Below are positions 1 through 26,683 of a stretch of 64,000 nucleotides of DNA, in pieces (within the stretch, counting starts at the first letter, position 1; each line of letters starts with the position of its first letter). The notes below the pieces were generated by a model. That model had not been told where the DNA came from. It searched no databases and saw only the letters and a list, made by a program, of their open reading frames with translations. Location: the IMG/VR virus record IMGVR_UViG_3300022928_002150, positions 1 to 64,000 of that record; one strand, written 5' to 3'. The position numbers were made by a program, and so were the translations under genes. The stretch comes from a virus.

Positions 1-15
1 AATCCATTTTATCCA

Positions 16-237
16 TTACCAATTTCCTTCCTTTAACCAATCCGCATCGTAGATGTGTCCAATCCAACCTCCATACATTTCTAGTACATCGTGGTCAGAA
101 CACCCTTCTGCTTCTTCAGCACCTAACTCTACTAACTCGTCTCTCAGCTCTTTCATAAACTTCTTGAGCTCTCGAAAATCAGGGTGAATAAACACTGCTT
201 CTTGCTGCTCTGGGTCAAATACTACATATAATTTCAT
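16..237 (-). CDS. hypothetical early protein (acidic, 73 aa)
   Basis: ORF with AAGGA RBS and its own sigma70-type promoter (263-292). Confidence 0.75.
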   Translation of the reverse strand: MKLYVVFDPEQQEAVFIHPDFRELKKFMKELRDELVELGAEEAEGCSDHDVLEMYGGWIGHIYDADWLKEGNW

Positions 238-262
238 GGCTTTTCCTTTTATTTATAAAGTT

Positions 263-292
263 ATTATACCACAATTTTGGTATTCTGGTCAA
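263..292 (-). promoter_or_regulatory. sigma70-type early promoter
   Basis: minus strand TTGACC-N18-TATAAT, preceded by an A-rich UP element. Confidence 0.65.
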
Positions 293-518
293 GAATTTTA
301 AACTTCTCACCCTCTTTAAATTCTGTTTTTTTGATTACTGCTTGGCCCAACACTGTAAAGTCTATGAAGTCAAAGGGTATAGACTTTATAGAGTGGTGTA
401 TGTCTTCTACTGTAGAGAAAGCTTTAGCTAAATTGATAGCTGTCTCAAAGTTAGAGTACGCACCTTTTATTGCACAGGTTTTGTCGTCTATCACACAAAA
501 GATCTTTTGCTTTGCCAC
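264..518 (-). CDS. hypothetical early protein (84 aa)
   Basis: GTG start with AGGAG RBS; consensus promoter at 547-575. Confidence 0.75.
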   Translation of the reverse strand: MAKQKIFCVIDDKTCAIKGAYSNFETAINLAKAFSTVEDIHHSIKSIPFDFIDFTVLGQAVIKKTEFKEGEKFKILDQNTKIVV

Positions 519-546
519 TTAATATACTCCTTTTTAATATGTGTAT

Positions 547-575
547 ATTATACTACCATTTGATTACGTTGTCAA
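547..575 (-). promoter_or_regulatory. strong sigma70 early promoter
   Basis: minus strand TTGACA-N17-TATAAT with an upstream A-tract. Confidence 0.8.
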
Positions 576-710
576 ATGTTTTTTCTTTTTTGTCAATAAG
601 CAACCGCAACCTAATTCCCGGGGGCCGCCCTCGACCATTGCGGGGTCAAGTTTTTTGTCAAATTTCGGCGCAAATAAATTTTTTTAAATTGTACCTAACC
701 CTACACGGGC

Positions 711-740
711 TTGACATTACCCCGCTAAAGCCTGTATAAT
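711..740 (+). promoter_or_regulatory. sigma70 promoter with no convincing downstream ORF
   Basis: TTGACA-N18-TATAAT. Confidence 0.65.
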
Positions 741-981
741 ATACCTAATGGGATTCCGTGCACACGGCGGCGATCCTGGGTTTGGCGGGTGTTTGGTAAG
801 ATAAAGCGGGGTTATCTCAAATTAAGTCCGATTTGCTGCATGGTACACTTTTACGTACATATAAGTGTATAAAAGTTACACTTTTACGTACGTAAATTTT
901 GCACTTCATTTTCGCACTTGCTTCGGCGCAGCCGAGACCTGCGCAAATTTAAACTAATTACAACACACCCGCAAAAAGTCC

Positions 982-1016
982 TTGACATCGCATCGATTTC
1001 CCACTATAATCGGCGC
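982..1016 (+). promoter_or_regulatory. sigma70 promoter with GC-rich discriminator, no convincing downstream ORF
   Basis: TTGACA-N17-TATAAT-CGGCGC. Confidence 0.7.
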
Positions 1017-1193
1017 GAGCAAATTTTCTACAAAATTTTCCGCAACTTTCCCCGAAGACTACCTTTTGATCCACCATACACGCACCCGCAAGGACGTAAC
1101 ACCAATCGGATTTGCACTTCGCTTTCGCACTGGCGCCCCCGCGCCAAAAATTTCAAGAAGTCAATGCTTTTTTCAAGAAATTTTTGGCGAGAG

Positions 1194-1209
1194 TGTTTCA
1201 CGTGAAACA
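1194..1209. promoter_or_regulatory. parS: parS centromere-like site (ParB binding)
   Basis: exact palindrome TGTTTCACGTGAAACA, intergenic. Confidence 0.85.
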
Positions 1210-1217
1210 TGCGCGAC

Positions 1218-1835
1218 CTATTCCAAATTTTCAAGTGTGGTATTGAGTGTTTCCAAAAGGGAATAGATGCCTTGCCGCTTGTCGTTGTAGTCGATCACAT
1301 GCCAATCAGAATCAATCACGCGCTCTTTTAATAGAGTCATGCGGTCATAGTATGAGAGCGCATTCTCGTCATTCTCGGAAAATTTCCAGTAGGTCAATGG
1401 CGATTTTTTTCTGCGCTCAATTCGTGCGCGTTGTTCATCCTCGGAAATTGAAAGCCAAAATTTAATCATGCGAACGCCTTGCGATTTTTCCCATGATTTA
1501 TGATTCGCTAGAAAATTCTTATATTGAGTTTCTGAGCACCAACCGTTTAAGCGTTGAACCATTGCGCGGCTATACCATGATCGATCATAAAAAACGATCT
1601 GGTTATATGCTGGCATTCTACGCGACCAATACGCAAGCCATTTTTTCATGGTGGACTTGCTAGGCTTGCGCGATAGATGCACAGAATAAAGCGCAGGATT
1701 CAGATAGTGCGTCACCTCGCGAATCGTCGAGGATTTTCCGGCAGTGTCGCGACCTTCGAGCACCACGCAGATTCTATCGAGCGCTAGATTTTCGAGATTG
1801 CGATTCAGTCGCGCCTGTTCTGTTTTTAATTTCAT
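1218..1835 (-). CDS. ppk2: polyphosphate kinase 2 (single domain)
   Basis: Walker A EGRDTAGKS, Walker B DRSWYSR, KFWLSISEDEQ and WKFS motifs. Confidence 0.92.
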   Translation of the reverse strand: MKLKTEQARLNRNLENLALDRICVVLEGRDTAGKSSTIREVTHYLNPALYSVHLSRKPSKSTMKKWLAYWSRRMPAYNQIVFYDRSWYSRAMVQRLNGWCSETQYKNFLANHKSWEKSQGVRMIKFWLSISEDEQRARIERRKKSPLTYWKFSENDENALSYYDRMTLLKERVIDSDWHVIDYNDKRQGIYSLLETLNTTLENLE

Positions 1836-1836
1836 A

Positions 1837-1947
1837 TTATACAGTCTCCAAAAGAAGCCAGATTATACCGCAAACGAGAATAAAATCAGCGCATAGCGAG
1901 TAAATTATATAAGCCTTGAAAGCTAAAGCGAGCAATTTGGTTTTCAT
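1837..1947 (-). CDS. small hydrophobic protein, 36 aa (MKTKLLALAFKAYIIYSLCADFILVCGIIWLLLETV)
   Basis: read manually; fills the gap between exonuclease and ppk2 with 1-nt spacers. Confidence 0.7.
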   Translation of the reverse strand: MKTKLLALAFKAYIIYSLCADFILVCGIIWLLLETV

Positions 1948-1948
1948 A

Positions 1949-2683
1949 TCATGCAACCTTTTTTGCAGTAAAATGATTTTTTGCTTGATAGTCGCGCCAG
2001 TTATAGCCAACGCAAGAATCTATGATGTCGGACATTTTACCGCGTTTTATGATTGCGTTCAATATAGGCAATTCGTAACCGATAATATCCTCTAACGCTG
2101 TATGTGGCTCGTCTGGCAAATCTTGACCCGTAACGAATCGCGCCATAACCTCGGCGTTGGTTTGGTAAGTCATATTGCCGAAAGCAGTAGGCGGATTAAA
2201 GTAATGATTTTGCATGATGAAATTTTTATATGCCGTAGAGGATGCCCATTTTACGCAGGCCGCTTGCCAGAGGCAGAAGCGCTGAGAAAAAATAGAGTGA
2301 TCTATTCCAGTATTTGACATTTTGCCAGAATCAAAGCCTAGATTGTAAGCGGTCAAGATTGGGTCGTATTTTCCGACCGCCCGCTCTAACCAGCGGTTAA
2401 TCGCGCCCACGCTTGCAATCATGCGCGAGCCATCCTGTACCATTTTTTGATATTTTGCATACCGTCGGTCTGCTGATTTGCGAGACCATAGCGCAGAAGG
2501 GCCAGCATCCTTATTAAAAAAGAGCGGGTGATTTTCTGCATCCGTGAAAATGCCGTCAACCATGACAGCGCATTGAGCGTGAATGCGCCCCTTGCGGTCT
2601 GTGATAGTGCAAGCAAAATCAGCGACCTTGTGATCTTGCGTTGTTTCAACATCGATTGTCGCTATATATTGTTTCTTGCTCAT
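1949..2683 (-). CDS. DEDDh 3'-5' exonuclease family protein
   Basis: IDVETT, AYNLGFD and HTALED (Exo I/II/III) motifs. Confidence 0.8.
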   Translation of the reverse strand: MSKKQYIATIDVETTQDHKVADFACTITDRKGRIHAQCAVMVDGIFTDAENHPLFFNKDAGPSALWSRKSADRRYAKYQKMVQDGSRMIASVGAINRWLERAVGKYDPILTAYNLGFDSGKMSNTGIDHSIFSQRFCLWQAACVKWASSTAYKNFIMQNHYFNPPTAFGNMTYQTNAEVMARFVTGQDLPDEPHTALEDIIGYELPILNAIIKRGKMSDIIDSCVGYNWRDYQAKNHFTAKKVA

Positions 2684-3150
2684 TATGCAGCTACCTTTTT
2701 TGCTTGGTTATATTTTACCGGATCGATTACACGAAAGCCAGCATTTTTTAAAGTTTGTTGCACGTCTGCGTTGTCATCCCAAAGGATAACGCGACGACGA
2801 ATTTCGTCGAACGAAACGCGGCGAGCAATCGCAAGCTCTGACATTTTGGCGAGCTTGAATTCACCAGCGGGTCGATTGTCATCGATTGAACGCGAAAGCG
2901 TAAACGCTGGCAGCATTCCGCGCATGCGTAGCCAAACGCGATCAACGCTACCCATGACGCGAGAAGTACAAATGCCAACGTCTAACCCTTCCGAGATGGC
3001 TTGAATCATTGTAGAAGCAAGCGGAAGCGTAGAGTCGCGCATGACGTTTGCGGGTGTATTCATTCTGCGCCAGTCGCTTAACGTCTCACCTTGACGGTGG
3101 GTCGAGTCGATGACAGTCTCGTCGAGATCAAATAAAAAAATTGGAAGCAT
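2683..3150 (-). CDS. HAD-superfamily phosphatase (possible functional analogue of T5 Dmp)
   Basis: FDLDET motif I, CTSR motif II, conserved K, WDD motif IV. Confidence 0.8.
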   Translation of the reverse strand: MLPIFLFDLDETVIDSTHRQGETLSDWRRMNTPANVMRDSTLPLASTMIQAISEGLDVGICTSRVMGSVDRVWLRMRGMLPAFTLSRSIDDNRPAGEFKLAKMSELAIARRVSFDEIRRRVILWDDNADVQQTLKNAGFRVIDPVKYNQAKKVAA

Positions 3151-3325
3151 AACCGATAATCCCTATTGTGTTTAATATAAGCAGATTGTAGCATTTTTTC
3201 TCGTATGCTTGCAAGCATAACAGAGCAAGTCCAATGATCGCCATGAGTTTACCCGCTGGCATGTCAATGAGGAAGGGAGCCGCGCCAAGCAGCGCGGTGC
3301 CTATCCAAGAGCAAACCGCAATCAC
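3128..3325 (-). CDS. small multi-pass membrane protein (65 aa)
   Basis: about three hydrophobic segments; overlaps both neighbours in the operon. Confidence 0.7.
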   Translation of the reverse strand: MIAVCSWIGTALLGAAPFLIDMPAGKLMAIIGLALLCLQAYEKKCYNLLILNTIGIIGYASNFFI

Positions 3326-3618
3326 GCGAGATGCTCTAAAACGCGGCTTAAGCCATCAACGGTGAGATTTTCGCGGTCACTCTCGGGTAATCCCAGAGAT
3401 CGCTCGATAGCACTCACAAGCTCGCGTTTAGTTGGGCCTTTTGGCCTTTTAGCCGCTGGAGCTTTAGCGATATAGTCAACGCCTTCGCTTTTGGCTTTGG
3501 CGATGATAGAGCGATAAGACACGGAACCGAATTCGTCGGCAAGCGCCTTTGCTTTGTCTAGGTCAAGGGGTGCAAGATCGCGCATTCGCTTAACCATTTT
3601 TTCAGTGTATGTAGCCAT
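3322..3618 (-). CDS. T5 A2-like pre-early DNA-binding protein
   Basis: SYRSIIAK...Y..K and TK.ELV..I patterns recall T5 A2; position in the terminal region. Confidence 0.65.
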   Translation of the reverse strand: MATYTEKMVKRMRDLAPLDLDKAKALADEFGSVSYRSIIAKAKSEGVDYIAKAPAAKRPKGPTKRELVSAIERSLGLPESDRENLTVDGLSRVLEHLA

Positions 3619-3659
3619 AACTTTTTTTCCTTAGTGATTAATGCTTTATTGCATGGGTA

Positions 3660-3703
3660 GGATTTTACAGAGGTATTCTGCAAATGTCCAGTATTTTTTA
3701 TAT
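3660..3703 (-). promoter_or_regulatory. pre-early promoter, copy 2
   Basis: minus strand TGGACA-N17-TAAAAT with A-tract; near-duplicate of 3868-3911. Confidence 0.7.
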
Positions 3704-3726
3704 CAAGATAGAATAACGATATTCCA

Positions 3727-3837
3727 TTATGGTATAAGGTTTAGCAAGAACGATCCTGCTATTGGCATCAGAATTGCTAAGGCAATTACCATGCCAATAA
3801 TTCCTAAGAGCGCTCTAGTGAATAAATCGTGAAACAT
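3727..3837 (-). CDS. small single-TM protein, 36 aa (MFHDLFTRALLGIIGMVIALAILMPIAGSFLLNLIP)
   Basis: read manually; AAGG RBS; directly downstream of promoter copy 1. Confidence 0.65.
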   Translation of the reverse strand: MFHDLFTRALLGIIGMVIALAILMPIAGSFLLNLIP

Positions 3838-3867
3838 TTTTTATACCTTTTGTTTTTATATGTGATG

Positions 3868-3911
3868 GATTTTACAGGGTCTAATTCCAAATGTACAGGG
3901 TTTTTTATATC
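3868..3911 (-). promoter_or_regulatory. pre-early promoter, copy 1
   Basis: minus strand TGTACA-N17-TAAAAT with A-tract. Confidence 0.7.
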
Positions 3912-3939
3912 GATGTGCTATAAGCTTATAACCAAATGT

Positions 3940-3957
3940 GCGTCAATAGTTTGACGC
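3940..3957. promoter_or_regulatory. GTCA-N6-TGAC inverted repeat (FleQ-box-like)
   Basis: GCGTCAATAGTTTGACGC. Confidence 0.5.
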
Positions 3958-3977
3958 GGGGCGTGCCCTAGCTCTTA

Positions 3978-3994
3978 AGCAGGAATCGTGCCAA
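3978..3994 (-). promoter_or_regulatory. sigma54 (-24/-12) promoter
   Basis: minus strand TTGGCACGATTCCTGCT vs consensus YTGGCACGNNNNTTGCW: one mismatch, GG-N10-GC intact. Confidence 0.75.
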
Positions 3995-4012
3995 CTTTAT
4001 TTTTCCCTTATA

Positions 4013-4025
4013 AATCAATAGGTTA
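4013..4025 (+). promoter_or_regulatory. IHF binding site
   Basis: AATCAATAGGTTA matches WATCAANNNNTTR, with a 5' A/T tract. Confidence 0.7.
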
Positions 4026-4059
4026 CGCGCGCCTGCCCAGGAGGGGGCGGTTAAGAGAC

Positions 4060-4075
4060 CGTCAAAATTTTGACG
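4060..4075. promoter_or_regulatory. perfect 16-bp palindrome, candidate bEBP enhancer (UAS)
   Basis: CGTCAAAATTTTGACG, about 100 bp upstream of the predicted sigma54 start. Confidence 0.55.
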
Positions 4076-4089
4076 CGCGCGGCCCCATC

Positions 4090-4185
4090 TTTACGTAAAA
4101 CTTTGTAAAAAACCGAAAAAACCCGAATCGGCGAAAAAACCTGAAAAAACCTCATAAAATTCGAACACGTCCGCAAAAATTTTTC
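4090..4185. repeat. phased A-tract repeats (AAAAAACC) near the putative genome end
   Basis: four AAAAAACC units plus further A-tracts at roughly helical spacing. Confidence 0.55.
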
Positions 4186-4244
4186 CTCTTAATTTTCTTC
4201 AGCATGTCTGAACCTTCCCTTTCCACCTTCCTACCTCACCTTCG

Positions 4245-4284
4245 AAAAATTTTTCTTGACATTCGATCTGCTCGAATGTATAAT
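4245..4284 (+). promoter_or_regulatory. late promoter for terS
   Basis: AAAAATTTTTC-TTGACA-N17-TATAAT. Confidence 0.8.
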
Positions 4285-4291
4285 TTATAGC

Positions 4292-4765
4292 ATGTCAAAA
4301 GAAGTTTCTATAATATCTCCCGAAGGAGTAGAAGTAGCTAATTGCTATCTCCAATACGGCAACATAAAGGCAGTTTGCGAATACATGTCTGTGCCAGAAC
4401 ATAGGGTAGTAGAAATTTTAAATACGCGTGAAGTAAAGCGTTATGTAGACACTGTGTATTTAGATATGGGGTACAGGAATAAAAATAATATTGCAGCTGT
4501 TCTTGACGAAATGATAGCATCAAAGCTAGAAGAGGCTCAAGAGAGCGGTATGTATACATCAAAGGATCTAGCGGATCTGATGGTCATGGCCCATAAAATG
4601 AGAATGGACGAAATTAAAGCGTTGGCAGAAGCTGAAAAGGCGTCCAATGCAGCCACTATTCGTAGTCAAACGAATGTACAGATTAATGAAGGTATTCCTT
4701 TTGGGCAAGGCAACTACGGTAAGTTGATGGAAAAATTATTAAATGGAGCTGGAGCAACAGAATAA
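4292..4765 (+). CDS. terS: terminase small subunit (T5-type)
   Basis: SPEG.EV...YLQ, EVK.Y....Y...GYRN, AHKMRM.E and QTNVQ motifs as in T5 TerS; start moved to ATG 4292 because TTG 4256 is the -35 box. Confidence 0.85.
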   Translation: MSKEVSIISPEGVEVANCYLQYGNIKAVCEYMSVPEHRVVEILNTREVKRYVDTVYLDMGYRNKNNIAAVLDEMIASKLEEAQESGMYTSKDLADLMVMAHKMRMDEIKALAEAEKASNAATIRSQTNVQINEGIPFGQGNYGKLMEKLLNGAGATE

Positions 4766-5033
4766 TCGCATAGATCGAATAGAGAACAAAATTGACAAAT
4801 TAACAGAACTAGTAGTAGCACTAGCAAGAGTAGAAGAGCAAATTTCAGACTTAGATGACGCAAGAGACAAAATTGAATCGAGAGTTACAGATATTGAAAT
4901 TATGCAAACGGTCGCACTTAGAGATATCGATAACCACGGCCATATTCTGCAAAGCATTACTAGACTGCTATGGATCGCCGTCACCGGCTTGATCACCTCA
5001 GGAATCGCAGCAACACTAGTAACTATTGGATAG
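4743..5033 (+). CDS. coiled-coil protein with C-terminal TM helix (XhlA/holin-like architecture)
   Basis: heptad pattern followed by LLWIAVTGLITSGIAATLVTIG. Confidence 0.6.
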   Translation: MELEQQNNRIDRIENKIDKLTELVVALARVEEQISDLDDARDKIESRVTDIEIMQTVALRDIDNHGHILQSITRLLWIAVTGLITSGIAATLVTIG

Positions 5034-5036
5034 AGA

Positions 5037-8000
5037 ATGGCTTTAGTACTACGACTTGTAAAAGGCACAGAACTTACTTTTACAGAGCTAGACGGAAACT
5101 TCACTTACTTAAATACAACTAAGTACGAAAGTGGAGATGACGCCCAATTTGGACAACTGAATTTTAGTACCCTCTCAGACGGTGTGCTACAGATTCTTGC
5201 GTTCACAAATGACCCGACTCTGAATTCTATAGACGGGTCAGTAATACTTCCTACTGAAGAAGCAGTAAAATCTTATGTTGCTTCTTATCACACTAATAAT
5301 CCTTATTCTTTTTCAGAACTCAATGACTCGAGCGGTGCTGGATTTCTCGGTGCCGTACTCATTCATGACGGCAGTAACTACGTTCCAAAAGCTCTTGAAA
5401 TCACAGACTTTTCAGATTTCGATGTTTCTACTGTTTCAGACGGATCTATTCTTGCATACGATGCTCAAACCTCTCTCTGGACCGCAACCTCTGCGGCAGC
5501 TTTAAGTTCCGTTTATTTAAATGATCTTGTAAATGTAAATGTTACAGGTGCCTCTGAAAATGATGTACTCGCTTTTGACGGGTCTTTTTGGGTAAGTACA
5601 AGTCCTGTTCTAGAAATAGAAAACTTAACAGATGTAAACTACCTCACAACTCCGAAGGCTGGCGAATCTTTAATATACGATGACGTTTTAGAACAGTGGA
5701 TTCCTGGAACACCAGCTACTGTCGGAAAACTAACTGTATCAGCCGCACTCAATACTAACATTACTGCAGGAAAGGCTGTTACAGTAGGTAGACAGAATAA
5801 CAGAACTGTAGTCTTTCCTATCTCTTATCTACCTCCTGAGTTTGGTCAATCAGAAACTGTTGGTAATCAGTTAGGCGCTCAAACTCATTCGCTATGGCTA
5901 AGCTCTCAGAAAAAATTTATTGTAGCATTTATTAATGCTACTACAGGTGCGGGCGAGTTTGTAATTGGAGAAGTAGATGATGATGGTGTAGAGATAACTA
6001 TGGACACCACTGTCCATGAGTTTGCTACCGGCGTCGGAGGAGAGTTCTCCGTTACGTATGATATAGCAACTACTCGAGTTATTTTTGCCTGGAAAGATAT
6101 TATTACCAATATTGGATATACTCGTGTAGTTACAATTGCAGGGTTTGCGGTAAGCATGTCGCAGTTTCCTATCGATTTTTCTTTGGGCGAGGCTATCGGC
6201 TCTCACTCCGTCTCTTCTGACACACAAAGCGGAAATTTAATTTTTCATTATGCGGATAACTCTTTAAACGGAGGAGGCGTAGGTATAGGTCGAGTAGGTG
6301 AAATAGATGGCTTAGACGTACTTTTTCAGCCGCCCACTGCTTTTACAACCAGGGAAGTTTACGACCTTCATACTGTTTATGCTCCTACAACTAATAGGCA
6401 CGTTACTGTATTTACTGACCAAATCAGTGAAGGCTACTCGATGGTCACTTTACTTACGGGGGTATTTGCAACTTATAGAACACCAAGAACATTTGATGAT
6501 GACTTAAGTTTTCCTTTTGTAACTATACTTCCAGACGGTAGCTCTTGCTGGGTTGCTTATAAAGATAATACGGTTAGTCCCCCTCGTGGAAAGGTCACAA
6601 GGTTTACTGCTAGCGCCACAGGTACTAGCACGGTAACAGACAACTCGTTGTACTCCAGATATTTCTTCGAAGATGGAACTGGCTCAGGGCCTACCCCGTA
6701 TAACATGTCAAATATTAGGCCTGCAGTCTTAGCATCCACTACAGATAGGGCGGCAGTTATTTTATGGGGGAGAGAGAACTCTGACACCAATGATATAGAA
6801 CTCTTTACAACAACTATTGCATATAGTGAATGGAGTGGCCGCCCCATTGTAGATATAGACGGAGCTGAGGCAGCTTCAGACGATACTTATGATTCTTTTA
6901 TAATAAATGGAAGCATACATCCCGCTTCTACTAGTGGGCTAACAGAAAGTAGAATGATAGTTCCGTTAGATTTAGCTACGGGAGTACGGGCTATAACCTA
7001 TGGGAACAATCCAGTAACTAATATTAAAGACTGGTTTGGTATCGCAGATGAAAGTTTTTCTAGTGGTTCAAGTGACTATAATTCTGGAATTATAACTATT
7101 TTAGGGGGCCAGACGAAGGTTACTAGTTGGATAGGTGGTTCACAGCCGAGTAATTTTGTTCCTGGTACTCCAATTTATATTGATAATTCAAGGTTATACC
7201 GAGGAAGTCTTCGCACCAGTGATGTAGGAAGCGGCGCCATTGGCATAAGTATAGATGCAAGCACCGTTCTTATTACCGGTGATGTCGAGCCAAATCCTAG
7301 CATAGCAGGTATACCCAAAAGCATAACAGAACTAGAGGATGTGGATACACTATCGACAGCTCCTCTTTCTCAACAATTTCTTCAATGGAATACCAATGCA
7401 CAAAAATGGGTTCCAGCCTATGCCTCAGTAACTGGTCAAATAAGTAATCTTGATGATGTCGATACTTATAACGGTTTTGAAGCTGGCATACCTAAAAGCC
7501 ACTTACTTGCTTGGGATAATTTTAACATAGAATGGGTTCCTAAATCAATAAATCAAATTTTAATTGATGAGCCTGTAGAGCTGGGAGAACTTAGTAATGT
7601 AAATTTTGTTCAAGTAAATGATGGAGATCTGCTCACATACAATGGTCCTACTCAGACTTGGATTTCATCCCCGGTAAATTTAGAAACCGATCTTGGAGAT
7701 ATAAATGATGTAGATTTAACAACCGGATTAGCTACAGGAACATATCTTCAGTATGATGGTGCTAATTGGGTTCCTGGCCAAGCCGTTTCAACTATGCCCA
7801 GGTTTAGAGATCTTGCAGATACCGGAGGCCAGTGGAGTGGCCAACAAGGTATGGTACCTATATTTAATACAACGGGTACCTATGCAAACCAGTTCACCTT
7901 AGGCTTTGTTAGTAATTTTGGCGGCATTGGAGACTTGTTTGATGTAGATACTTCTACTATTTCGCCCCAACCCGGTCAGTCTCTTGTTTGGAATGGAACT

Positions 8001-11000
8001 AAGTGGGCGCCTGCTACTATTACTGGTGGTGGAGGAGGAAGTACTGGCGGTGGCGATACTGGAGGGGGTACTACTACTACTCCTAGCCCAAACCCTGACG
8101 GGGGTGGAGGAAGTACTGGCGGAACCGTTGAAACGGAAGACGGGGATATAATAGAAATTCCCTCTTTAGACGTTGATGAAGATATAGAAGAACCTATCGA
8201 AACTGGAACTGGGTTTGTTTCTGAGACTGTTACTAATACTGATACTGTACCTGCAACGGATGTTATTCCTGAAAACGTAAAGCCGGGCGACTTATTTCAA
8301 ACACCCTCATTATCTAAGCCGTATCCTGTTGTATACAGCATATCTGAAGACAGGACAGAGCTCACTCTTTCTGAAAATATATCAACTAGTCAATTTGAGG
8401 CTATTATTTTTGCAACTCCTCCTGTCTACCAAGTAGTTGCAACTACTGGCACTGTAGAGGTTGGTCAGGGGGTTGTAGGTACTGAATCCACTAGTGAGAT
8501 CTTTCTTGATACTCCTTTGCCTGAAGAAATTGTTCCTGGTCACGCTGTTTACATAGGAAGCAATGTAAATATTCCTATTGTAAGTGGAATAAGTGGAGAC
8601 AGATTAAGCTTTGCTGTAAGTTATGATATAGATATAACTGCAGGCGCTACTATTATATTTAAAGTAGTAATTCCTATGGCAATCTCTCAGGATGTAGGAT
8701 CATTCGTAAATAACAATCCTGCAGGGACTACTGGTAGCAACACTATTGTACTGAACGACCCTGTGGGCCCAGATGTAGAAGTTAATCATTATGTAATGCA
8801 CTCGGAACTAGAGTCTGCTCCTAGAGTAGTATTTATATCTACAGACAGACTTAGCATTACTGTAAATAAAAATGTAGACGCTTTAGTAGACGGTCAATTT
8901 ATTACCTTTGGTAGTACTACTAGCAAGCAGCAAGAAGTAACGTTTACTCTAGCGGAACTATCAGATACAGATATTCAAACAGCTGCTTTGCAAGATGGAG
9001 AGGTTTTACTGTGGAACTATGAAAACCAAGTATGGACTACTAGTGACGTCCAACTATCTAATTCATTAGACGCATTAAATGATGTTCGTATCGACAACCC
9101 TCAAGAAGGTCAAATACTTAGATATACTACACTAGCTGATGCAAACAGATATGAAAATATAGATCCCAGTTTTGGAGCAGGCGCTCTAGCAGATTTTAAT
9201 TACAATATAGCGAATCAGGCATCGAACAATATTCTTACGTGGCACGCCCCTTCTTCCGCCTTTATCAGTACTCCTATAGGCGAGGTCATGAGAGCAAGTG
9301 ACTATACCATGAACAACCTTGCAGACGTTACTGGTGTGCCCTTTGATGGATCTGCTTTAGTATACGACAGTAACACAGGATTCTATAGCTCTGCGTCCTT
9401 CCCAGACAGCATATATGATTTAGCTGATGTCGCAGGTTTGCCAGAACCGTCTGATGCTCTTGTATGGAACGGCGCAAGCTGGAGCCCTGCGCCCATACCC
9501 AGGGCTTTAGAAGACCTAAACGAAAGATCTATTTTTCTATTAAACCAGCTAAACGAGAACGGTTTTCAAAATCTGGGAAATACACCTTCTTCTAAGTTTT
9601 TAAAATGGACGGGAACTACTATAGATACTGTAGTTACGGGCAGCATAGAAGGAATAGGACTTAGATTAGAAGATTTAGACGATGTTTCAATAACTGAACC
9701 CTACAATTCGGATTTTATTTCTTGGGATCCCGATACAAACTCATGGGTAACTAGAAGTGTAGAAGGTGCAGTAATTTCTATAGGTTTGGATGTTTTAACC
9801 GATGTAGATTTTCAGGCAGTGCCTCCACAAAACAGAAACACATTAGAGTATAACGCGTCTACAGGGGAGTGGAGACCTGCAACTCGCTCAGGTGTAGCCA
9901 ACTATATAGCCGCTGAAAACCTTTCAGCAGGTGACCTACTAGCTTTAAGATCAGACGGCGAAGTCGAAAAAATAGCAGAAATAGAAAGTAGTGTATCCAG
10001 CATCTTTCAAGCTTCAGGTAGCCCTTCAGTAAGTTCTGATTACTATGGTAAAAGTGTATTTGTATCTGATGACTATTATATTGTGGGAGCTCCAGGGTAT
10101 GAGTACTTAACTGTTGGGGGTAAGGTAGAAATATTCTCTACAAGTACTAACACCCTTGTACAAACTATAAACAACCCCAATGCAACTGCCAATGATAAAT
10201 TTGGAGAATCGGTATCAATTTCAAGCCAGTTTTTTACTATTGGGGCTCCAGGCTACGACTCTAATGCAGGCCGAATATATGTATATAGTTTACCAGGGTT
10301 CATACTAGAACATACTATCGACAACCCAAATGCAGCAACATCAACGTTAGACGACCAATTTGGCTTTAGAGTACAGAATACAAATACTTATGTAGCGGTT
10401 ACTGCAATTAATGAAGAGCCTCAATCCTTGTCAGATACTAACTCTGGCACAGTGTACGTATTTAACACTGCAACTGGAAATCAGTTAGGCTTTGTAGAAA
10501 ATCCCTCTCCCAGCATAACAGGGTTTGGTAGTGCTATATCAATATCTACTTCAGGCGATTTAGCTATTGGAAGCCCTAGCGAGGAAAAAGTATATGTCTA
10601 TGAGGCAGCTACTTTAAGCTCTATCTATACTATTTCTAACCCTGGCGGTGCAGGAGACTTCGGTAGCTCTATTGCAATTTCTTCTGACGGACGTATGGTG
10701 GTTGGTGCTCCTACTGCTGATACGGGCAGCGGAAAACTGTATATATACAATTTAAATAATGGCGATTTTAACTATACTCTTAACAACCCTAATAGAAACG
10801 CAGACGTACCCACAGGCGATAATTTTGGTAGTAGCGTTGCTGTAACAACTGAGTATATACTTGCTTCTGCCAGTGGAGAGAATGTAGGGAGTGTTTATTT
10901 GTTCGAGGCCGCCTCGGGAGCTTTTAGAAATGAATTTTTATCAGATGAAGGAGCAACAAATATAAATTGGGGATTTGGTCTAGCTCTTACGAACGACTAT

Positions 11001-14000
11001 CTTATTATTGGTTCGCCTAGACTAACCGTTGCAGGTACAGGTAAAATTGCAACTTTTGCTAGTGATTCGTTCATAGAAAGTAATGCTGGTGATTGGGTAG
11101 GAATATCAGAACAATCGGTAGAAGCTACTCAACAAGTAACTGTAACAACTGTAGGTGCCGTAAATAAGTTTGTATCCGGTCTGACTATTAATAAAAACTA
11201 TTATATAGACGGTAGAGGCTTTATAACTGAGACTGAGACAGATTACGGTGTGTTAGGAAAAGCTCTTGCTGCTGATGAGTTGCTTATTACAGGAAATGTA
11301 GTATCTGCTGAAACCGGAGTAACTTATATAAATGATATCCGTGATGTAGATACTGTAACTGTTCCTCCCTCTAACAATCAAGGCTTAGTATGGGATAGTG
11401 CTAATAATAGGTGGGCCCCTAAAAATATAGGATATAGTAATATCACTACTTTTGGTGGCTTAACAGATACAAGTGTTGGGGGAGTCCAAGCAGGCCAAGG
11501 TCTTAAATACAGTGGATCTTCATGGGGTCTTGCAACATATATTGAAGCTGGAACTCTATCTCTAAGTAGTCTATCAGATGTTGATACTTCCGGGGTTGTT
11601 GATAATGCCGCCTTAGTTTACAGTTTGCAATTTGATGAGTGGCAGGCAAGTGTTATACCGATCCCAGCAACAATAAACGATTTAAATGATATAGATCTTT
11701 CCACAGTATCTGCGGTTAATAATGATGTATTAGTTTATAATGCCAACAGCGAGCTGTGGGAGCCAGGTCAAGTTTCTAGAGTATCTGCGCTTGGGGACTT
11801 AATCGATGTAGATTTAGCTTCTCAGCCGCCTGTACAAGATAATGTTATTGCTTATCAAGCGGGCGTTGGCTGGACACCTGTTCAAATTACTAATATTACC
11901 GTAACGCAGTTAGATAACATGGATGATGTTAGAACTGCGGGACTTTATGCACCTGTTCCAGGAGAAACTTTAATTTGGAACGGTATTGAAGGCGTATGGG
12001 AGCCAGGCTCTCCAGCCTTAGACACTATTAGTATAGGATCTCTTTCAGACGTAGATACTACGCCCGGCACTGCAAGTGAGCCTAGTTTCGGAGAATTTTT
12101 AGCCTGGGACGGAGTTAATTGGTCTCCTGGCTCAACAGCACCTACTGCTGCAACTCTTAATAGTTTGCTAGATGTAGAGGTAATTGCAAACCCAGCAAAA
12201 GAAAAGGAAGTACTTACTTATGATGCTACTACCCAGAAGTGGTACCCTAGAGCAGGGCACTCGGGTGGTATAGAAAACTTCATAGCAAATGGAGATATTA
12301 GTGATGGAGATATAGTTTCTATTACCCCTCCTGGAAAAGTTAAAAAGACAGGTCAAGAGCCCTTTTTACCTGCTTGGAATGTAGAAAACCCTACTATATT
12401 TGGTACGGCTACCAGTGATCAATTTACTAGTGCAGTTGTTGCATCAGGAGATTATATTATTGCTGGTGCTCAATATGAGGACGAGATAGAAGGAAGTAGT
12501 TCTGGGGTTGTATACGTATTTAATAATTTTGGTACTCAACAGTATTATATTAAAAATGAAAATATAAATAATCCTGTAACAGGGGACCGATTTGGTAATT
12601 CTTTAGACGCTAGCGGTAACCTTCTAGCGGTAGGATCTCTTCTTGCTGATGATCTAACAGGGTATAATCAAGGAGCAGCTTATGTCTACCGCTTGGCTAC
12701 AGGAACATCCCCTAGTGGAGACTTATGGCTATCAATACAAAATCCTGATGGTACAAACAACGCGCAGTTTGGCACTGACGTAGCTATAAGCGATTATAAT
12801 GGTGAGGCTCGTTTAGCCGTCGGCGCACCACTAGAAGATATGAGTGACCAATACTCAGAAGCTGGATGCGTATACTTTTTCGATCCTGACATAGGTGTAG
12901 GAGACCCTCAATATGGGTTTTTATACCGTATTGATAATCCTAATACAGTCGGTAGTATATCAGGGGATTACTTTGGCCAAAGAGTGTCTCTTACTCAAGA
13001 TAGAAAATACTTAGCTGTTACTGCGTCCAGAGAAGGTACAACTAGCGTAAAGGGATATGTCTATATATATGACGTAAGCAGTGACTCTCTTCCCGTTTTA
13101 TTACATACTATATCAAATCCAAATCCGGGTGGAGGTTCAGATGCAACGCATGGGTTTGATATAGTATGGGATAGAAATCCATCAATTAAAAGATTAGCTA
13201 TATCTGCACCAGAGCAGGATTTTACGGGTGCTAATGAAGGTCTTGTTTATATATATGATGTAACCGATGAAGCTTGTACTCTTATAAATACTATTCAAAA
13301 CCCTGATACTTATCCTCTTCCGCAGGGAGATGAGTTCGGCTACTCCATCGATATGAAAGATAACAAAATACTAGTAGGTGCAAGAAGAGAAGATCAGGGG
13401 TACATAGGAGGAGTATATACTAATGCTGGTAAGGCTTATTATTTCGAAGCCGATACCGGTACTCCTATTGCATATTTTGACAATCCTAATATATATGGGA
13501 ATAGTACAACTGAGTACTTTGGTTCAAGTGTTGCTATTGGTAATGATAAATTATACGTAGGTGCTCCTTTTGCTAGGAATACTATTTCAGGTGACTTTAA
13601 CTCTGGACACCTTACAGCTTTTGATATTAATATAACTAGTAATGCTTCATCTTGGATAGGAGTAGCTTTTGAAGATATTTTAGATGGAGATGTAGGACAA
13701 GTAACCCTGTTTGGTGGTATAGCACACAATCAAGTTAATCTATTGCCGGGACAGAATTATTATTTAAATATTGATGGTACTCTTAACAGTTCTCCCACAA
13801 ATTTAGGTATTTTTGGTAAAGCTTTAAGTGCAAACGACATTTTAATAACAGGGGACGTTGAATCTAATACTGCTGACCAAGTAAATAATTTAAATGATCT
13901 TGGAGATGTTACTGCATTTGCTTCAGACGGCCAGGCGCTTGTTTGGAACGCACAAAGCTCTCAATGGGTAGCAGGAGATGCGGCTGGGGGTGTTAGTAGC

Positions 14001-17000
14001 TTATCGGATTTAGATGATATAAATTTACCTATACCTTCAAATATTCAAACAGGGGAGGTTTTAACTTGGAACGCGGTATCTCAGTCTTTTGTTAATGCTG
14101 TAACTGGTTCAAGTAACGTAGACGTATTAGATGATTTAACAGACGTAGATCTTAGTAGTGTTTTACCTTCAGCTTTGCAGATATTGCAATATAATGGCTC
14201 AATATGGTCTCCTCAAGACTTACCCGAGGGACAGCGTATTACTGGTATTGCAGCGGAGCAAATATTACAAGGCGGCTTAGTAGTACTAAATAGTTCTGGT
14301 CAGTTTGAAAATCCCACAATAACTGCAGGGGAGCTGGTATCTTCTTTCCCATCTAGCTCAGATTTGGGACTTTTTGGGCATACAATTGCAGAAGAAGGCG
14401 GCCGTGTCGCAGTTTCAGCACCTTATCATAGAATTGGCCCCAACAGCGGAGTCGCAACCGGCCTAGTAAGGATTTATGATACAGATAACTCTACTTTAAT
14501 ACGTACATTACAACCCTCCCTAAGCCTCACAACGCCCGCGGCTTGGCGAGGAGAAACTAATCAGGCGTTTGGATTTGCAGTAGCAATAAAAGATGATTAT
14601 GCAGTTGTAGGCTCTCCTCTTAAGGATTTAGATGCGGTTAATTCTGGCGTTGTATACGTATATAGAATAAGCTCAGGTACTTTAATAGCAGTTCTAGAAA
14701 GCCCTGAGCCTCTTCTCCAAGGGCAGTTCGGTTCCTCAGTAGCTATTAACTCAACCTATGTAGCAGTGGGCGCACCACGAGTAGATATAGGGAATAATGC
14801 ATTAGTAGGTAAAGTATATAGATATCCTATCTCGTTATTAGAGTCATCAGAGTATGGAATACCAGAAGGAGAAACAGAAGCAAGATGGGATCCTCTTTTA
14901 GTTCCTGATTTTACATTCAACAATAATAATGATGATGGAGGCACTGGAGGAGACCTGTTTGGGTCTGCACTGAGCGCAACAGATACTTACTTGTCTATTG
15001 GAGCTCCTGGGGAGGATACTGGAGGACAGCTATCAACCGGTAGAATATACGTTCGTAATATTAATACTGGGTCTACTATACACACTCTGCAGGATACTAA
15101 TATAGGATCTAACGGACTAGGTTTTACCTTCGAAATGGATGATTCTATCATAGTTGCAGGAACCCCAGACTTTAATGGAGGTTTGGGAAGGGTATTGGTA
15201 TATTCTACAACCTCGGGTGCAGTGCTTGCAGAAATAAACAGTCCAGATCAGATAGGAGATAAATTCGGTAGGTCAGTAGGGCTGGGATCGAGTCAAATCG
15301 TTGTAGGTTCAGAAGCAAATAATGACGTATTAGGTTACAATGACTCAGGAAAGTTTTATAGCTATAATAGAGCATCCACTACTTCGTACCCCCTATATGC
15401 GGCATTTGAAAACCCGGGTTATGTTGTCAACCCTTCCGGAAGTTTATTTGGATTTTCTGTAGCGGTAACAAATTCTGGTCGTGCTATTGTTGGTGCTCCG
15501 TATAATGATAATGTTCAGGGAACTCAACAGTTCCCCGCAACAGATAGAGGGGTATTCTTTATATACGATGTAACACTGCAAGCTACACAATCAAATGCAG
15601 CAGACTGGATGGGCATTGCAGAACAGACAGCAGTTACAGGAGAACAACTAGAAGTGGTAATTCTAGGAGGAAAAACTTCTAGTATTTACTCTAATTTAGT
15701 TCCTGGAGAATATTACTATGCTGGGGCTGACGGAAGTCTAACCCTTGAAGAAACTTCTTACGGAATAGTAGGTCCTGCAGCAAGTGTTTCTGAAATATTA
15801 ATACTTGGAAGTATTTCAGGCGTATCTGATATGGCTGACTTAGCTGATGTTGATTTTTCTGCGGGATTAGTTCCCCAACATGGATTAACTTGGAACGGTC
15901 AAAAGTGGGTAGCAAGCTATGTATCAACAGTAACTAATTTACTAGATCTTGAAGATGTAAATTTACTAGACTCTCCTCCAGAAGATGCACAAGGCTTAGT
16001 TTATGATAACAACACGTCTAAATGGGTTCCTGCTAATATAGGCTACTCTAATGTAGCTCAGTTTAGTGATCTTAATAATGTAGATGTTAGTAATGCTACA
16101 GTAGGCCAAAGCATTGAATGGAACGGAGTAAATTGGATTCCTACTACGTTTTCTTCTGTTAATAGTATAAATGATTTAACGGATGTAAACACTACTACTC
16201 TTAAAGTTGATTACGATATACTTACTTGGAGCGAGTCTGCAGATGAGTGGATAATAGACAAACGTAATTTTGGCAATTTTTTAAACCTAGAGGCTTATGC
16301 TCCAACACAACCAATACAAGCTGGAGATCCTGTTTATATTACGGACGATGGTAAAGTTGCTGCAATCAAAGGCACGGAGACTGTTCTAGGCACAGAAAGC
16401 CTAGTAAATACTTTATATCCTCCTGTATCGAATTCTAATTTTGGAACTAATTTAGCGGTTAGTAAAGATATTATAGTTGTAGGTAACCCGTATTTTACCA
16501 GCGGAAATATTCTGAGTACAGGTAGAGCATACATCTATAATGCTACTAGTGGGCAGCTTCTATATACTTTGGAGCCTCCTACTGATTATTCATTACAAAG
16601 TTTTGGCTGGGGAGTAGCTACAAATGGCAGCGAAGTAGCTATTACTGCTAAAGAGTCTCCCTCTAATAATGATTACGGGCGTATTTATTTATACGATGCT
16701 TATACAGGAGCTTTATTAAGACAAATAGTAAACCCAGAAGACTCTGTATCTACGAATGGCCCTTTTGCTCAGCATAATTCAGTAGTAATGACGTCATCTT
16801 ATTTAATTGTAGGTAACTCTAATTGGAGAGATGCTACGTTAGGAACTACTCCGGGTAAGGCATACGTATTTAATATATTTACAGGCACTCAGGAGTATAG
16901 TTTTAATAACCCAAATCCTTCTAATGGAGCAGATTTTGGTCGATATATTAATATAGATGAAAGTGAAAGTATCATTTCAATAACAGATACAGGCACTGGA

Positions 17001-25378: not shown

Positions 25379-26683
25379 ATGGCAGTAGAAGTTAGTAGGC
25401 AGGACGTAGTAGCAGAAAACTTAGTAGATATAGATAAGACTACTAGGTTTCTTAAGCTACCTGTGGCTCCTTACCTAGAAATGTTAGGAGTCGAGGCACT
25501 ACCTTCACAAAAAGCAATTATTAATGCTATAAATAATCCTAAATATAGGTTCGTTTGTGCAGCGGTATCGAGAAGACAAGGAAAGACGTACATAGCGAAT
25601 ATTATTGGACAATTAGTATCTTTAGTGCCAAATTCAAATATATTAATTATGTCTCCAAATTATGCGCTTTCTCAAATATCGTTTGACTTACAAAGAAACT
25701 TAATTAAACACTTTGACCTAGAAGTAACCAAAGATAATGCAAAAGATAAAGTTATAGAGCTCTCTAATGGCTCTACTATTAGAATGGGTTCTGTAAACCA
25801 AGTTGATTCATGTGTGGGTCGAAGTTACGATCTTATAATTTTTGACGAAGCAGCGTTAGCAGACGGCAAGGATGCCTTTAATGTCGCACTTCGGCCCACC
25901 CTTGATAAAGATAACTCTAAGGCATTATTTATATCTACACCTCGTGGTAGAAACAATTGGTTTGCTGAATTTTTTAATAGAGGTTATGAGGATGCTTTTT
26001 CTGAATGGGCATCTGTTCGCGCAACTTATAAAGATAATCCTAGAATGACAGAAGCAGACATTAACGAAGCTCGTAAAAGTATGTCTGAAGCAGAGTTCAA
26101 ACAGGAATACGAAGCTGACTTCAATACTTATGAGGGGCAGGTATGGAAATTTGATTATGAAAACTGTACAGTTAATCTCGAGGATATTCAGACAAAAGAA
26201 ATGGATGTTTTTGCAGGACTTGATGTAGGCTATAGAGACCCTACTGCTTTCTGTGTTGTTGCATACGATTGGGATGAAGAAAAGTACTTTTTAGTAGACG
26301 AATATTTAGACGCAGAGAGAACAACTGAGCAGCACGCAATAGAAATTCAAGCTTTAATTCAAAAATGGGATATAGATTACATTTATATTGACTCAGCAGC
26401 ACAACAAACAAGATTTGATTTTGCACAAAACTACGATATTAGTACTATCAATGCAAAAAAATCTATACTGGATGGTATATCTCATGTCGCAGGTATAGTC
26501 GACAACAATAACTTATTAGTGTCTCAAAAATGTAAAGAATCTTTAGCTGCTTTGGACCAATATCAATGGGATCCTAATCCTAATCTATTAAAAGAGAAGC
26601 CAAAACATAATAGAGCTTCTCATATGGCAGACGCCATAAGGTATGCTATTTACTCTTTTGAGACTAGCAATACGGGATTCTAA
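25379..26683 (+). CDS. terL: terminase large subunit
   Basis: SRRQGKT Walker A, IIFDEAA Walker B, ISTPRG, GLDVG and HMADAIRY nuclease motifs. Confidence 0.97.
   Translation: MAVEVSRQDVVAENLVDIDKTTRFLKLPVAPYLEMLGVEALPSQKAIINAINNPKYRFVCAAVSRRQGKTYIANIIGQLVSLVPNSNILIMSPNYALSQISFDLQRNLIKHFDLEVTKDNAKDKVIELSNGSTIRMGSVNQVDSCVGRSYDLIIFDEAALADGKDAFNVALRPTLDKDNSKALFISTPRGRNNWFAEFFNRGYEDAFSEWASVRATYKDNPRMTEADINEARKSMSEAEFKQEYEADFNTYEGQVWKFDYENCTVNLEDIQTKEMDVFAGLDVGYRDPTAFCVVAYDWDEEKYFLVDEYLDAERTTEQHAIEIQALIQKWDIDYIYIDSAAQQTRFDFAQNYDISTINAKKSILDGISHVAGIVDNNNLLVSQKCKESLAALDQYQWDPNPNLLKEKPKHNRASHMADAIRYAIYSFETSNTGF

Follow-up and report, generated by a model that had tools for sequence, protein, structure and literature searches.

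A single, perfect parS palindrome of the chromosomal type lies beside the end of an operon in an uncultured marine phage in which we detect no partition genes, and the site recurs in about 50 distinct contexts across the phage's family. Judging from comparisons of sequence, we put at roughly two in three the probability that this is a functional parS, under purifying selection, which loads host ParB and couples the phage DNA to the positioning or partition machinery of the host. Host ParB is the best candidate reader because the phage has no ParB of its own and the sequence has no other known reader; that ParB binds, which host is involved and all that would follow from binding are what we infer from the observations below.

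The window analysed here is the whole stretch of bases 1-64000 of a 95,808-bp IMG/VR virus record (G000, 98% complete). At 1194-1209 it matches the tested parS consensus TGTTNCACGTGAAACA, a 16-bp palindrome, at 16/16 positions with 0 mismatches. No further parS with three or fewer mismatches occurs elsewhere in the 64,000-nt window, and the complete 95,808-bp record holds one copy. The site is intergenic, separated from the ppk2 stop codon by exactly 8 bases (1210-1217); the ORFs overlapping it use TTG as start codon and are not conserved in sequence among relatives. A sequence-only reading of this DNA had described just such an intergenic 16/16 match 8 bp beyond the ppk2 stop and had put its chance occurrence in one window at about 1e-5; position and match are confirmed, and the chance figure is right at about 1.5e-5 for one perfect match in 64 kb. 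Since a few perfect matches are expected by chance over ~250,000 windows, a single one is weak proof, and it is conservation that decides. The features on which the argument draws are the following, in window coordinates.

1194..1209, no strand: parS, TGTTTCACGTGAAACA; single genomic copy, kept in ~50 distinct family contexts.
540..1217, no strand: composite noncoding module of ~650 nt, with parS as its first element on the operon side; same architecture in the related genome G003 and in ~30 relatives.
1142..1189, no strand: AT-rich inverted repeat (18-nt arms, 12-nt spacer) adjoining parS; dominant hairpin in folds, with a similar element in relatives.
1129..1151, no strand: GC hairpin beside an A/T run, reading ACTGGCGCCCCCGCGCCAAAAAT on the plus strand; 23 nt identical in G003.
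982..1010, plus strand: sigma-70 promoter, 12/12 consensus, transcribing in the direction of parS and of the ppk2 3' end.
711..740, plus strand: second promoter, 12/12 consensus, directed towards parS.
612-625: GGCCCCCGGGAATT motif, upstream of the promoter at 547..575; similar motif in relatives.
547..575, minus strand: promoter, 12/12 consensus, at the far edge of the tract; serves the small AT-rich gene block.
264-518 and 16-237, continuing at the far end of the contig, minus strand: small AT-rich gene block, with the promoter at 547..575 upstream.
1218..1835, minus strand: gene for PPK2 (polyphosphate kinase 2; Pfam PF03976, 5.7e-42), the last operon gene in this genome.
1949..3618, minus strand: rest of the operon ending at parS, four ORFs, in synteny with relatives.
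1949-2683, minus strand: gene for a 244-aa protein with no assigned function; in many relatives it directly precedes parS.
2683-3150, minus strand: dmp-like HAD phosphatase (phmmer against T5 dmp 1.7e-7, a weak match from a small database).
3128-3325, minus strand: 65-aa ORF, operon member.
3322-3618, minus strand: 98-aa ORF, operon member.
4256..4765, plus strand: small terminase subunit TerS (phrog_3802, 2.6e-37), divergent from the dmp-like operon and ~3 kb from parS.

The sequence-only reading had proposed a scan of related phages for the site, and the relatives do carry it. Among 41 related viral contigs gathered through PPK2 (59-89% amino-acid identity), a parS with at most two mismatches occurs in 29, several of the site-less loci ending 6-90 bp downstream of ppk2, and the exact form TGTT[TC]CACGTG[AG]AACA occurs in 23 of the 41; 300 control palindromes of equal half-site composition match 0.2 loci on average. 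In these PPK2-anchored loci the site lies almost always 10-700 bp downstream of ppk2. When 28 distinct contexts are aligned on the site, the flanks hold ~0.23 bit per column and are clearly unrelated, against 1.77 in the site itself, a figure inflated by ascertainment as the sites were chosen by match. A second scan of IMG/VR, independent of ppk2 and asking for a parS with TTTGGCGC 35-65 nt further on, matched 61 contigs, of which 48 share proteins with this genome and so add 48 family contigs with the site. Given this conservation, set against the 0.2 loci of the control palindromes, we take the site to be genuine and maintained by selection, and not due to chance.

The spectrum of variants is equally informative. 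Across the ~50 contexts, TGTTCCACGTGGAACA accounts for 27, TGTTTCACGTGAAACA for 11 and the hybrid TGTTCCACGTGAAACA for five, while a change at position 1 is found in seven; variation in the family is confined to the pattern given above plus these position-1 changes. Position 5 of the site corresponds to the degenerate position (N) of the B. subtilis parS consensus. The commonest form, TGTTCCACGTGGAACA, is that of the ParB-bound parS2/3 of P. aeruginosa (PMC5098823). By this comparison, the family varies at positions that natural ParB sites tolerate. In a tree of PPK2, every deep clade contains parS, and forms TTTC and TTCC have been interchanged several times, the pattern expected from purifying selection on a ParB site.

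The same variants bear on the idea that the sequence is read by something other than ParB, either as an RNA or DNA hairpin terminating the operon or as the operator of a phage protein that shares the parS sequence. The site does always stand at the end of the operon, inside a module with other hairpins, and the changes of site position T5 to C and A12 to G are formally compensatory. However, as a hairpin the site is only weakly stable (-7.3 kcal/mol, z = -1.1), no U-tract or T-run follows the site in any relative, and a terminator scan was negative. Only two contexts alter the ACGT loop, and there is hardly any variation at positions 2-4 and 13-16, so that it is sequence, and not pairing, that is conserved; moreover, in the operon mRNA the pair is broken by the hybrid form, and the position-1 changes are uncompensated. 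On the strength of the weak fold, the missing T-run, the negative scan and the conservation of sequence rather than pairing we rejected a hairpin or terminator, and since any such reading would leave it to chance that the site equals both the parS consensus and its known natural variants, we regard a non-ParB site of any kind as very unlikely.

The landmark to which the site is tied is the end of the dmp-like operon. The order across the family is constant: TerS, the divergent operon (98-aa, 65-aa, dmp-like, 244-aa and sometimes PPK2), parS, the ~650-nt noncoding module and the small AT-rich genes. Within the operon, profile matches were obtained to phrog_415 (2.7e-18, for the dmp-like ORF) and phrog_20187 (2.6e-12). 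In G003 (IMGVR_UViG_3300020370_000002) ppk2 lies 3.5 kb off, yet the GGTTTCACGTGAAACA site still comes immediately after the 244-aa gene homologue, and in many of the contigs found with the composite pattern parS comes after the 244-aa gene, with ppk2 beyond the noncoding tract. Thus parS is fixed at the end of the dmp-like operon while ppk2 moves (upstream, downstream or 3.5 kb off), and because it is ppk2 whose position shifts in many relatives and parS whose position does not, the link between the two is incidental. We also rejected the possibility that parS had hitch-hiked with ppk2 from bacteria, as no parS lies within 3 kb of ppk2 at 29 bacterial loci (36-43% identical; Porticoccaceae, Cellvibrionales and others) or at one distant bacterial locus (27% identical).

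Two nominally bacterial PPK2 matches (66-68% identity) come from MAGs into which short, phage-like contigs had been binned, and among phage isolates no close PPK2 was found. Short contigs of this phage family occur in a Rubripirellula MAG (L251, JBMYRF010000105.1), where the contig contains ppk2 and a parS, and in the MAG of a Poseidoniales archaeon (L252, CAYMED010000055.1); their placement is probably binning contamination rather than a signal of the host. With regard to the other side of the operon, TerS lies 20 kb upstream of TerL (25379-26683), with a 4647-aa ORF (5037-18980) and two others, of 649 and 849 aa, in between; where relatives lack the 4647-aa ORF, the two terminase genes are only a few kb apart.

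On its other flank, parS opens the composite noncoding module, whose elements follow in a set order: the inverted repeat, the T-run and GC hairpin, the promoters, the GGCCCCCGGGAATT-like motif and, ~50 nt on, the promoter of the small genes. In relatives, the T-run and GC hairpin appear as a TTTGGCGC..GCGCC element 42-61 nt from parS, and one to four opposite-strand consensus promoters lie 100-380 nt from parS and are aimed at the site. The stretch at 747-960 is free of ORFs, and its fold is better than those of 199 out of 200 shuffled versions (z = -2.4); a search of the noncoding tract against Rfam returned nothing meaningful. The promoters at 711-740 and 982-1010 would drive ORF-less transcripts towards parS (711-1190), antisense to ppk2, which may be small RNAs or antisense regulators, and equivalent promoter units exist in relatives. 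A second palindrome, AATGAGAA-NN-ATTCTCATT, resembling a Fur-family 7-1-7 box, is kept in L123, L124, L126, L133, L140-143, L148, L151 and L152 and stands directly beside parS in several relatives; it does not occur in this 64-kb window. Its presence in relatives suggests that other regulators of the host have sites in the tract as well.

A setting of this kind raises the question of whether ParB clamps at the site serve local control, as a roadblock or silencer between the convergent units (the dmp-like operon and the 1-4 consensus promoters aimed at the site) or as a repressor of the early promoter ~600 nt away, such that expression is timed by the state of the host. Silencing by chromosomal ParB is generally mild, which counts against such a role, and ParB clamps are not known to arrest RNA polymerase. 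On the other hand, parS lies exactly between the convergent units, with three 12/12 promoters within ~650 nt, and this arrangement is conserved. Furthermore, ParB is reported to repress the promoters beside parS3/4 in P. aeruginosa (10.1101/151340), and spreading of ParB over ~2 kb (PMC5815017) would cover the tract. Weighing these points, we hold local control as the function of the site to be unlikely.

The phage itself is of siphovirus type in its structural module. Its TerL is ~48% identical to those of Vibrio and Pectobacterium T5-like phages, and the order of RNR, flap endonuclease, D14-like PDDEXK nuclease, SbcC, SbcD, helicase, PhoH and polymerase mirrors that of Vibrio phage X1, D11 likewise falling into the T5-like order between SbcD and helicase. 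Taken together with the weak dmp-like ORF, TerL and the arrangement of these genes for replication make "distantly T5-like" a fair description. No tyrosine integrase, serine recombinase or resolvase was found in G000 or in the related genomes G001, G002 and G003, and the phage accordingly looks lytic by its gene content. The sequence-only reading, which had spoken of a lytic T5-like phage with neither parA nor parB in the window, therefore stands, with the qualifier "distantly" attached to the T5 likeness.

It had also proposed searching the rest of the genome for parAB, and the absence extends to the whole genome and to relatives. Searches for ParB_N (PF02195), HTH_ParB (PF17762) and ParA/AAA_31 (PF13614) found none in four genomes that are 70-100% complete (G000, 98%; G001, 91%; G003, 100%; and G002), and ParB_N was also absent from nine further fragments of the family. 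The same profile searches recovered each family in 9 to 14 of 14 control genomes, with ParA in 14 of 14. A phage-encoded parAB therefore does not explain the site, and because a genuine parS here has no phage ParA or ParB beside it, use of the host's ParB is the natural reading.

At the level of DNA, bases 1-8000 of the window have no match among cultured phages, and a search with the T5 pre-early proteins found no homologue of A1 or A2, the weak dmp match being the only hit. Neither T5 nor Vibrio phage X1 contains a parS when one mismatch to the degenerate pattern is allowed. Resemblance to the first-step-transfer region of T5 consists in a dmp-like phosphatase within an early-looking operon that borders a noncoding tract rich in repeats and promoters; the region differs in that T5 has no parS and that no A1 or A2 homologue was found in the marine phage.

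These comparisons are relevant to a proposal of the sequence-only reading, namely that ParB and SMC loaded onto the DNA of a first transfer step ratchet or reel in the remaining genome, as part of a two-step injection of the T5 type. TerL and the replication module are indeed T5-like and the adjacent operon has its dmp-like gene. Against this, no A1 or A2 homologue was found, T5 and the Vibrio T5-like phage do without parS, and we know of no case of ParB- or SMC-driven DNA import. The start of the contig is, in addition, arbitrary, because in G001 ppk2 and parS are followed without a break by homologues of genes that here lie partly at the far end of the contig and partly in its first 500 bases. 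The labels that this reading gave to the region (first-injected DNA, terminal repeat, injection-stop-like tract) thus find no support in these comparisons, and we consider import driven from the site extremely improbable. Silencing and titration, which it also named as consequences, are speculative.

As regards the genome ends, the direct terminal repeat recorded for G003 was rejected as a biological repeat: bases 1-4911 are identical to 77895-82805, and this 4,911-bp overlap, which contains TerL and the portal gene, is the wrap-around of a circular assembly. Contig ends of relatives are scattered, with no pile-up at one point. In T5 the dmp and terminase genes stand in tandem, whereas here the dmp-like operon is divergent from TerS, so that its orientation relative to the terminase genes presumably differs from that in T5 and the position of the terminus does not follow from T5. 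A terminus or the boundary of a repeat could plausibly fall in the noncoding module. A bolder version, in which the module marks that boundary and ParB-CTP clamps are required there, either holding or orienting the entering end or acting as a checkpoint of host state between the convergent early units, seems to us improbable; were it true, a chromosome-segregation protein would be an obligatory host factor for abundant ocean phages.

A clue to the host is a permuted two-piece tmRNA at 91726-92106 of the contig, on the minus strand (L294:7817-8080), with tag ANDVYEQELALAA. It scores 107.8 bits with the Rfam model tmRNA_permuted and 67.3 bits with alpha_tmRNA, and since it is a permuted tmRNA of the alpha type, it points to Alphaproteobacteria. 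The nearest bacterial PPK2 homologues are gammaproteobacterial, a weak pointer to marine Gammaproteobacteria. Alpha- and Gammaproteobacteria normally have ParABS with this parS consensus. Most bacterial orders have a parB on the chromosome (PMC12704722), and from this prevalence and the alpha-type tmRNA the candidate host probably has ParABS.

The closest precedent for a host-type site on a virulent phage is the Bacillus phage phi29, for which five host-type parS sites and Spo0J-dependent trapping of the genome in the spore are described (PMC2731898). Like the marine phage, phi29 and Nf are lytic, have no partition genes and carry the parS sequence of the host chromosome; phi29 exploits host ParB (Spo0J), and we suggest the same use here. 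Unlike the marine phage, which is large and T5-like with one site at a fixed landmark, phi29 has five sites, Spo0A boxes, entry into spores and a Gram-positive host. As the alpha-type tmRNA indicates a host that is probably a non-sporulating marine proteobacterium, the pay-off must differ from that in phi29. Chromosomal parS sites (B. subtilis, Caulobacter, P. aeruginosa; PMC5098823, PMC5815017) have the same 16-bp sequence and the same natural variants, including TGTTCCACGTGGAACA, whereas the phage site is not origin-proximal, is unclustered and has no cognate parAB operon on its replicon. P1, P7 and N15 are likewise phages with a centromere on the genome, but they are temperate and have their own ParA and ParB with a private parS, while in the marine phage no ParA, ParB or integrase was detected.

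Under our preferred reading, host ParB dimers would recognise the phage parS during infection, bind CTP and close into clamps, which would spread roughly 1-2 kb over the neighbouring phage DNA, covering the multi-promoter control tract on one side and the 3' end of the dmp-like operon on the other. Such a mimic of a partition complex would couple the phage DNA to the partners of host ParB, namely ParA, SMC and, in Alphaproteobacteria, polar PopZ and MipZ. The outcome we favour is that the host machinery positions or partitions phage genomes, which could then persist through the division of slow or stalled hosts, a non-sporulating counterpart of the Spo0J-dependent entrapment of phi29 in spores. 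Titration of ParB from the host and damping of nearby promoters would be side effects or alternative pay-offs.

Several considerations weigh against the loading of host ParB. Each genome has a single site, where phi29 has five and chromosomes have clusters, and sliding ParB clamps run off a free DNA end, which counts against this reading if parS lies near one. ParA-driven partition would be of little gain to a T5-like phage that destroys host DNA. A parS is also dispensable for this type of phage, as T5, the Vibrio T5-like phage and the distant relatives L164 and L165 lack one, and the Vibrio host of that parS-less phage presumably has ParB. Finally, a phage protein could instead read the larger conserved module that always encloses parS.

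The effect on the host may also be the purpose, with parS copies forming a sink that draws ParB, MipZ and SMC off the chromosome and blocks segregation and division, the positioning of the phage being irrelevant. This would fit a host of the kind that the alpha-type tmRNA suggests: in Caulobacter a plasmid carrying parS is lethal, and a parS at an ectopic position upsets both cell length and the foci of MipZ (PMC5815017). One site per genome would be enough at high copy number. A sink would act only after replication, however, and would serve no purpose were the host DNA degraded early, as it is by T5, and the dmp-like gene hints at such degradation; nor does a sink explain the strict landmark or the fixed spacing of 42-61 nt to the next element of the module. 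We find this use of the site rather unlikely as the main function, and we count it, together with the local roadblock or silencer, among the credible alternatives to loading for positioning or partition.

In the literature searched, we found no paper describing parS in T5-like or marine lytic phages, and phi29 and Nf were the only published cases found of host-type parS on a virulent phage. Matches to the TerL of this clade in IMG/VR number at least 600, and the clade is one of very abundant, uncultured, marine T5-like siphoviruses. As far as the sequences can tell, what is new here is the occurrence of the site in an abundant marine clade, as a single copy at a fixed landmark within a composite module, with a rich spectrum of variants and with related lineages that have two or three sites. 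If host ParB does load, very abundant ocean phages depend on or manipulate the chromosome-segregation machinery of their hosts, and the trick of phi29 would be general, with another pay-off (persistence in slow-growing hosts, division arrest or control of early genes). The natural variants of the site constitute a ready-made mutational series for the specificity of ParB, and the variant that a phage carries might help to predict the hosts of uncultured phages.

It is worth adding that two ~96-kb contigs with a perfect parS (L027 and L053) were considered as relatives and rejected, as they are not related. In L301, L303, L316, L321, L340 and L344, a lineage only weakly related to this phage (polymerase 23% identical), twin perfect parS sites lie exactly 181 bp apart with the TTTGGCGC element nearby. 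Three perfect parS sites are packed into 1.8 kb (L314:18-1835) in a more distant T5-like relative, L314 (TerL 56% identical), just upstream of its small genes, TerS and TerL.
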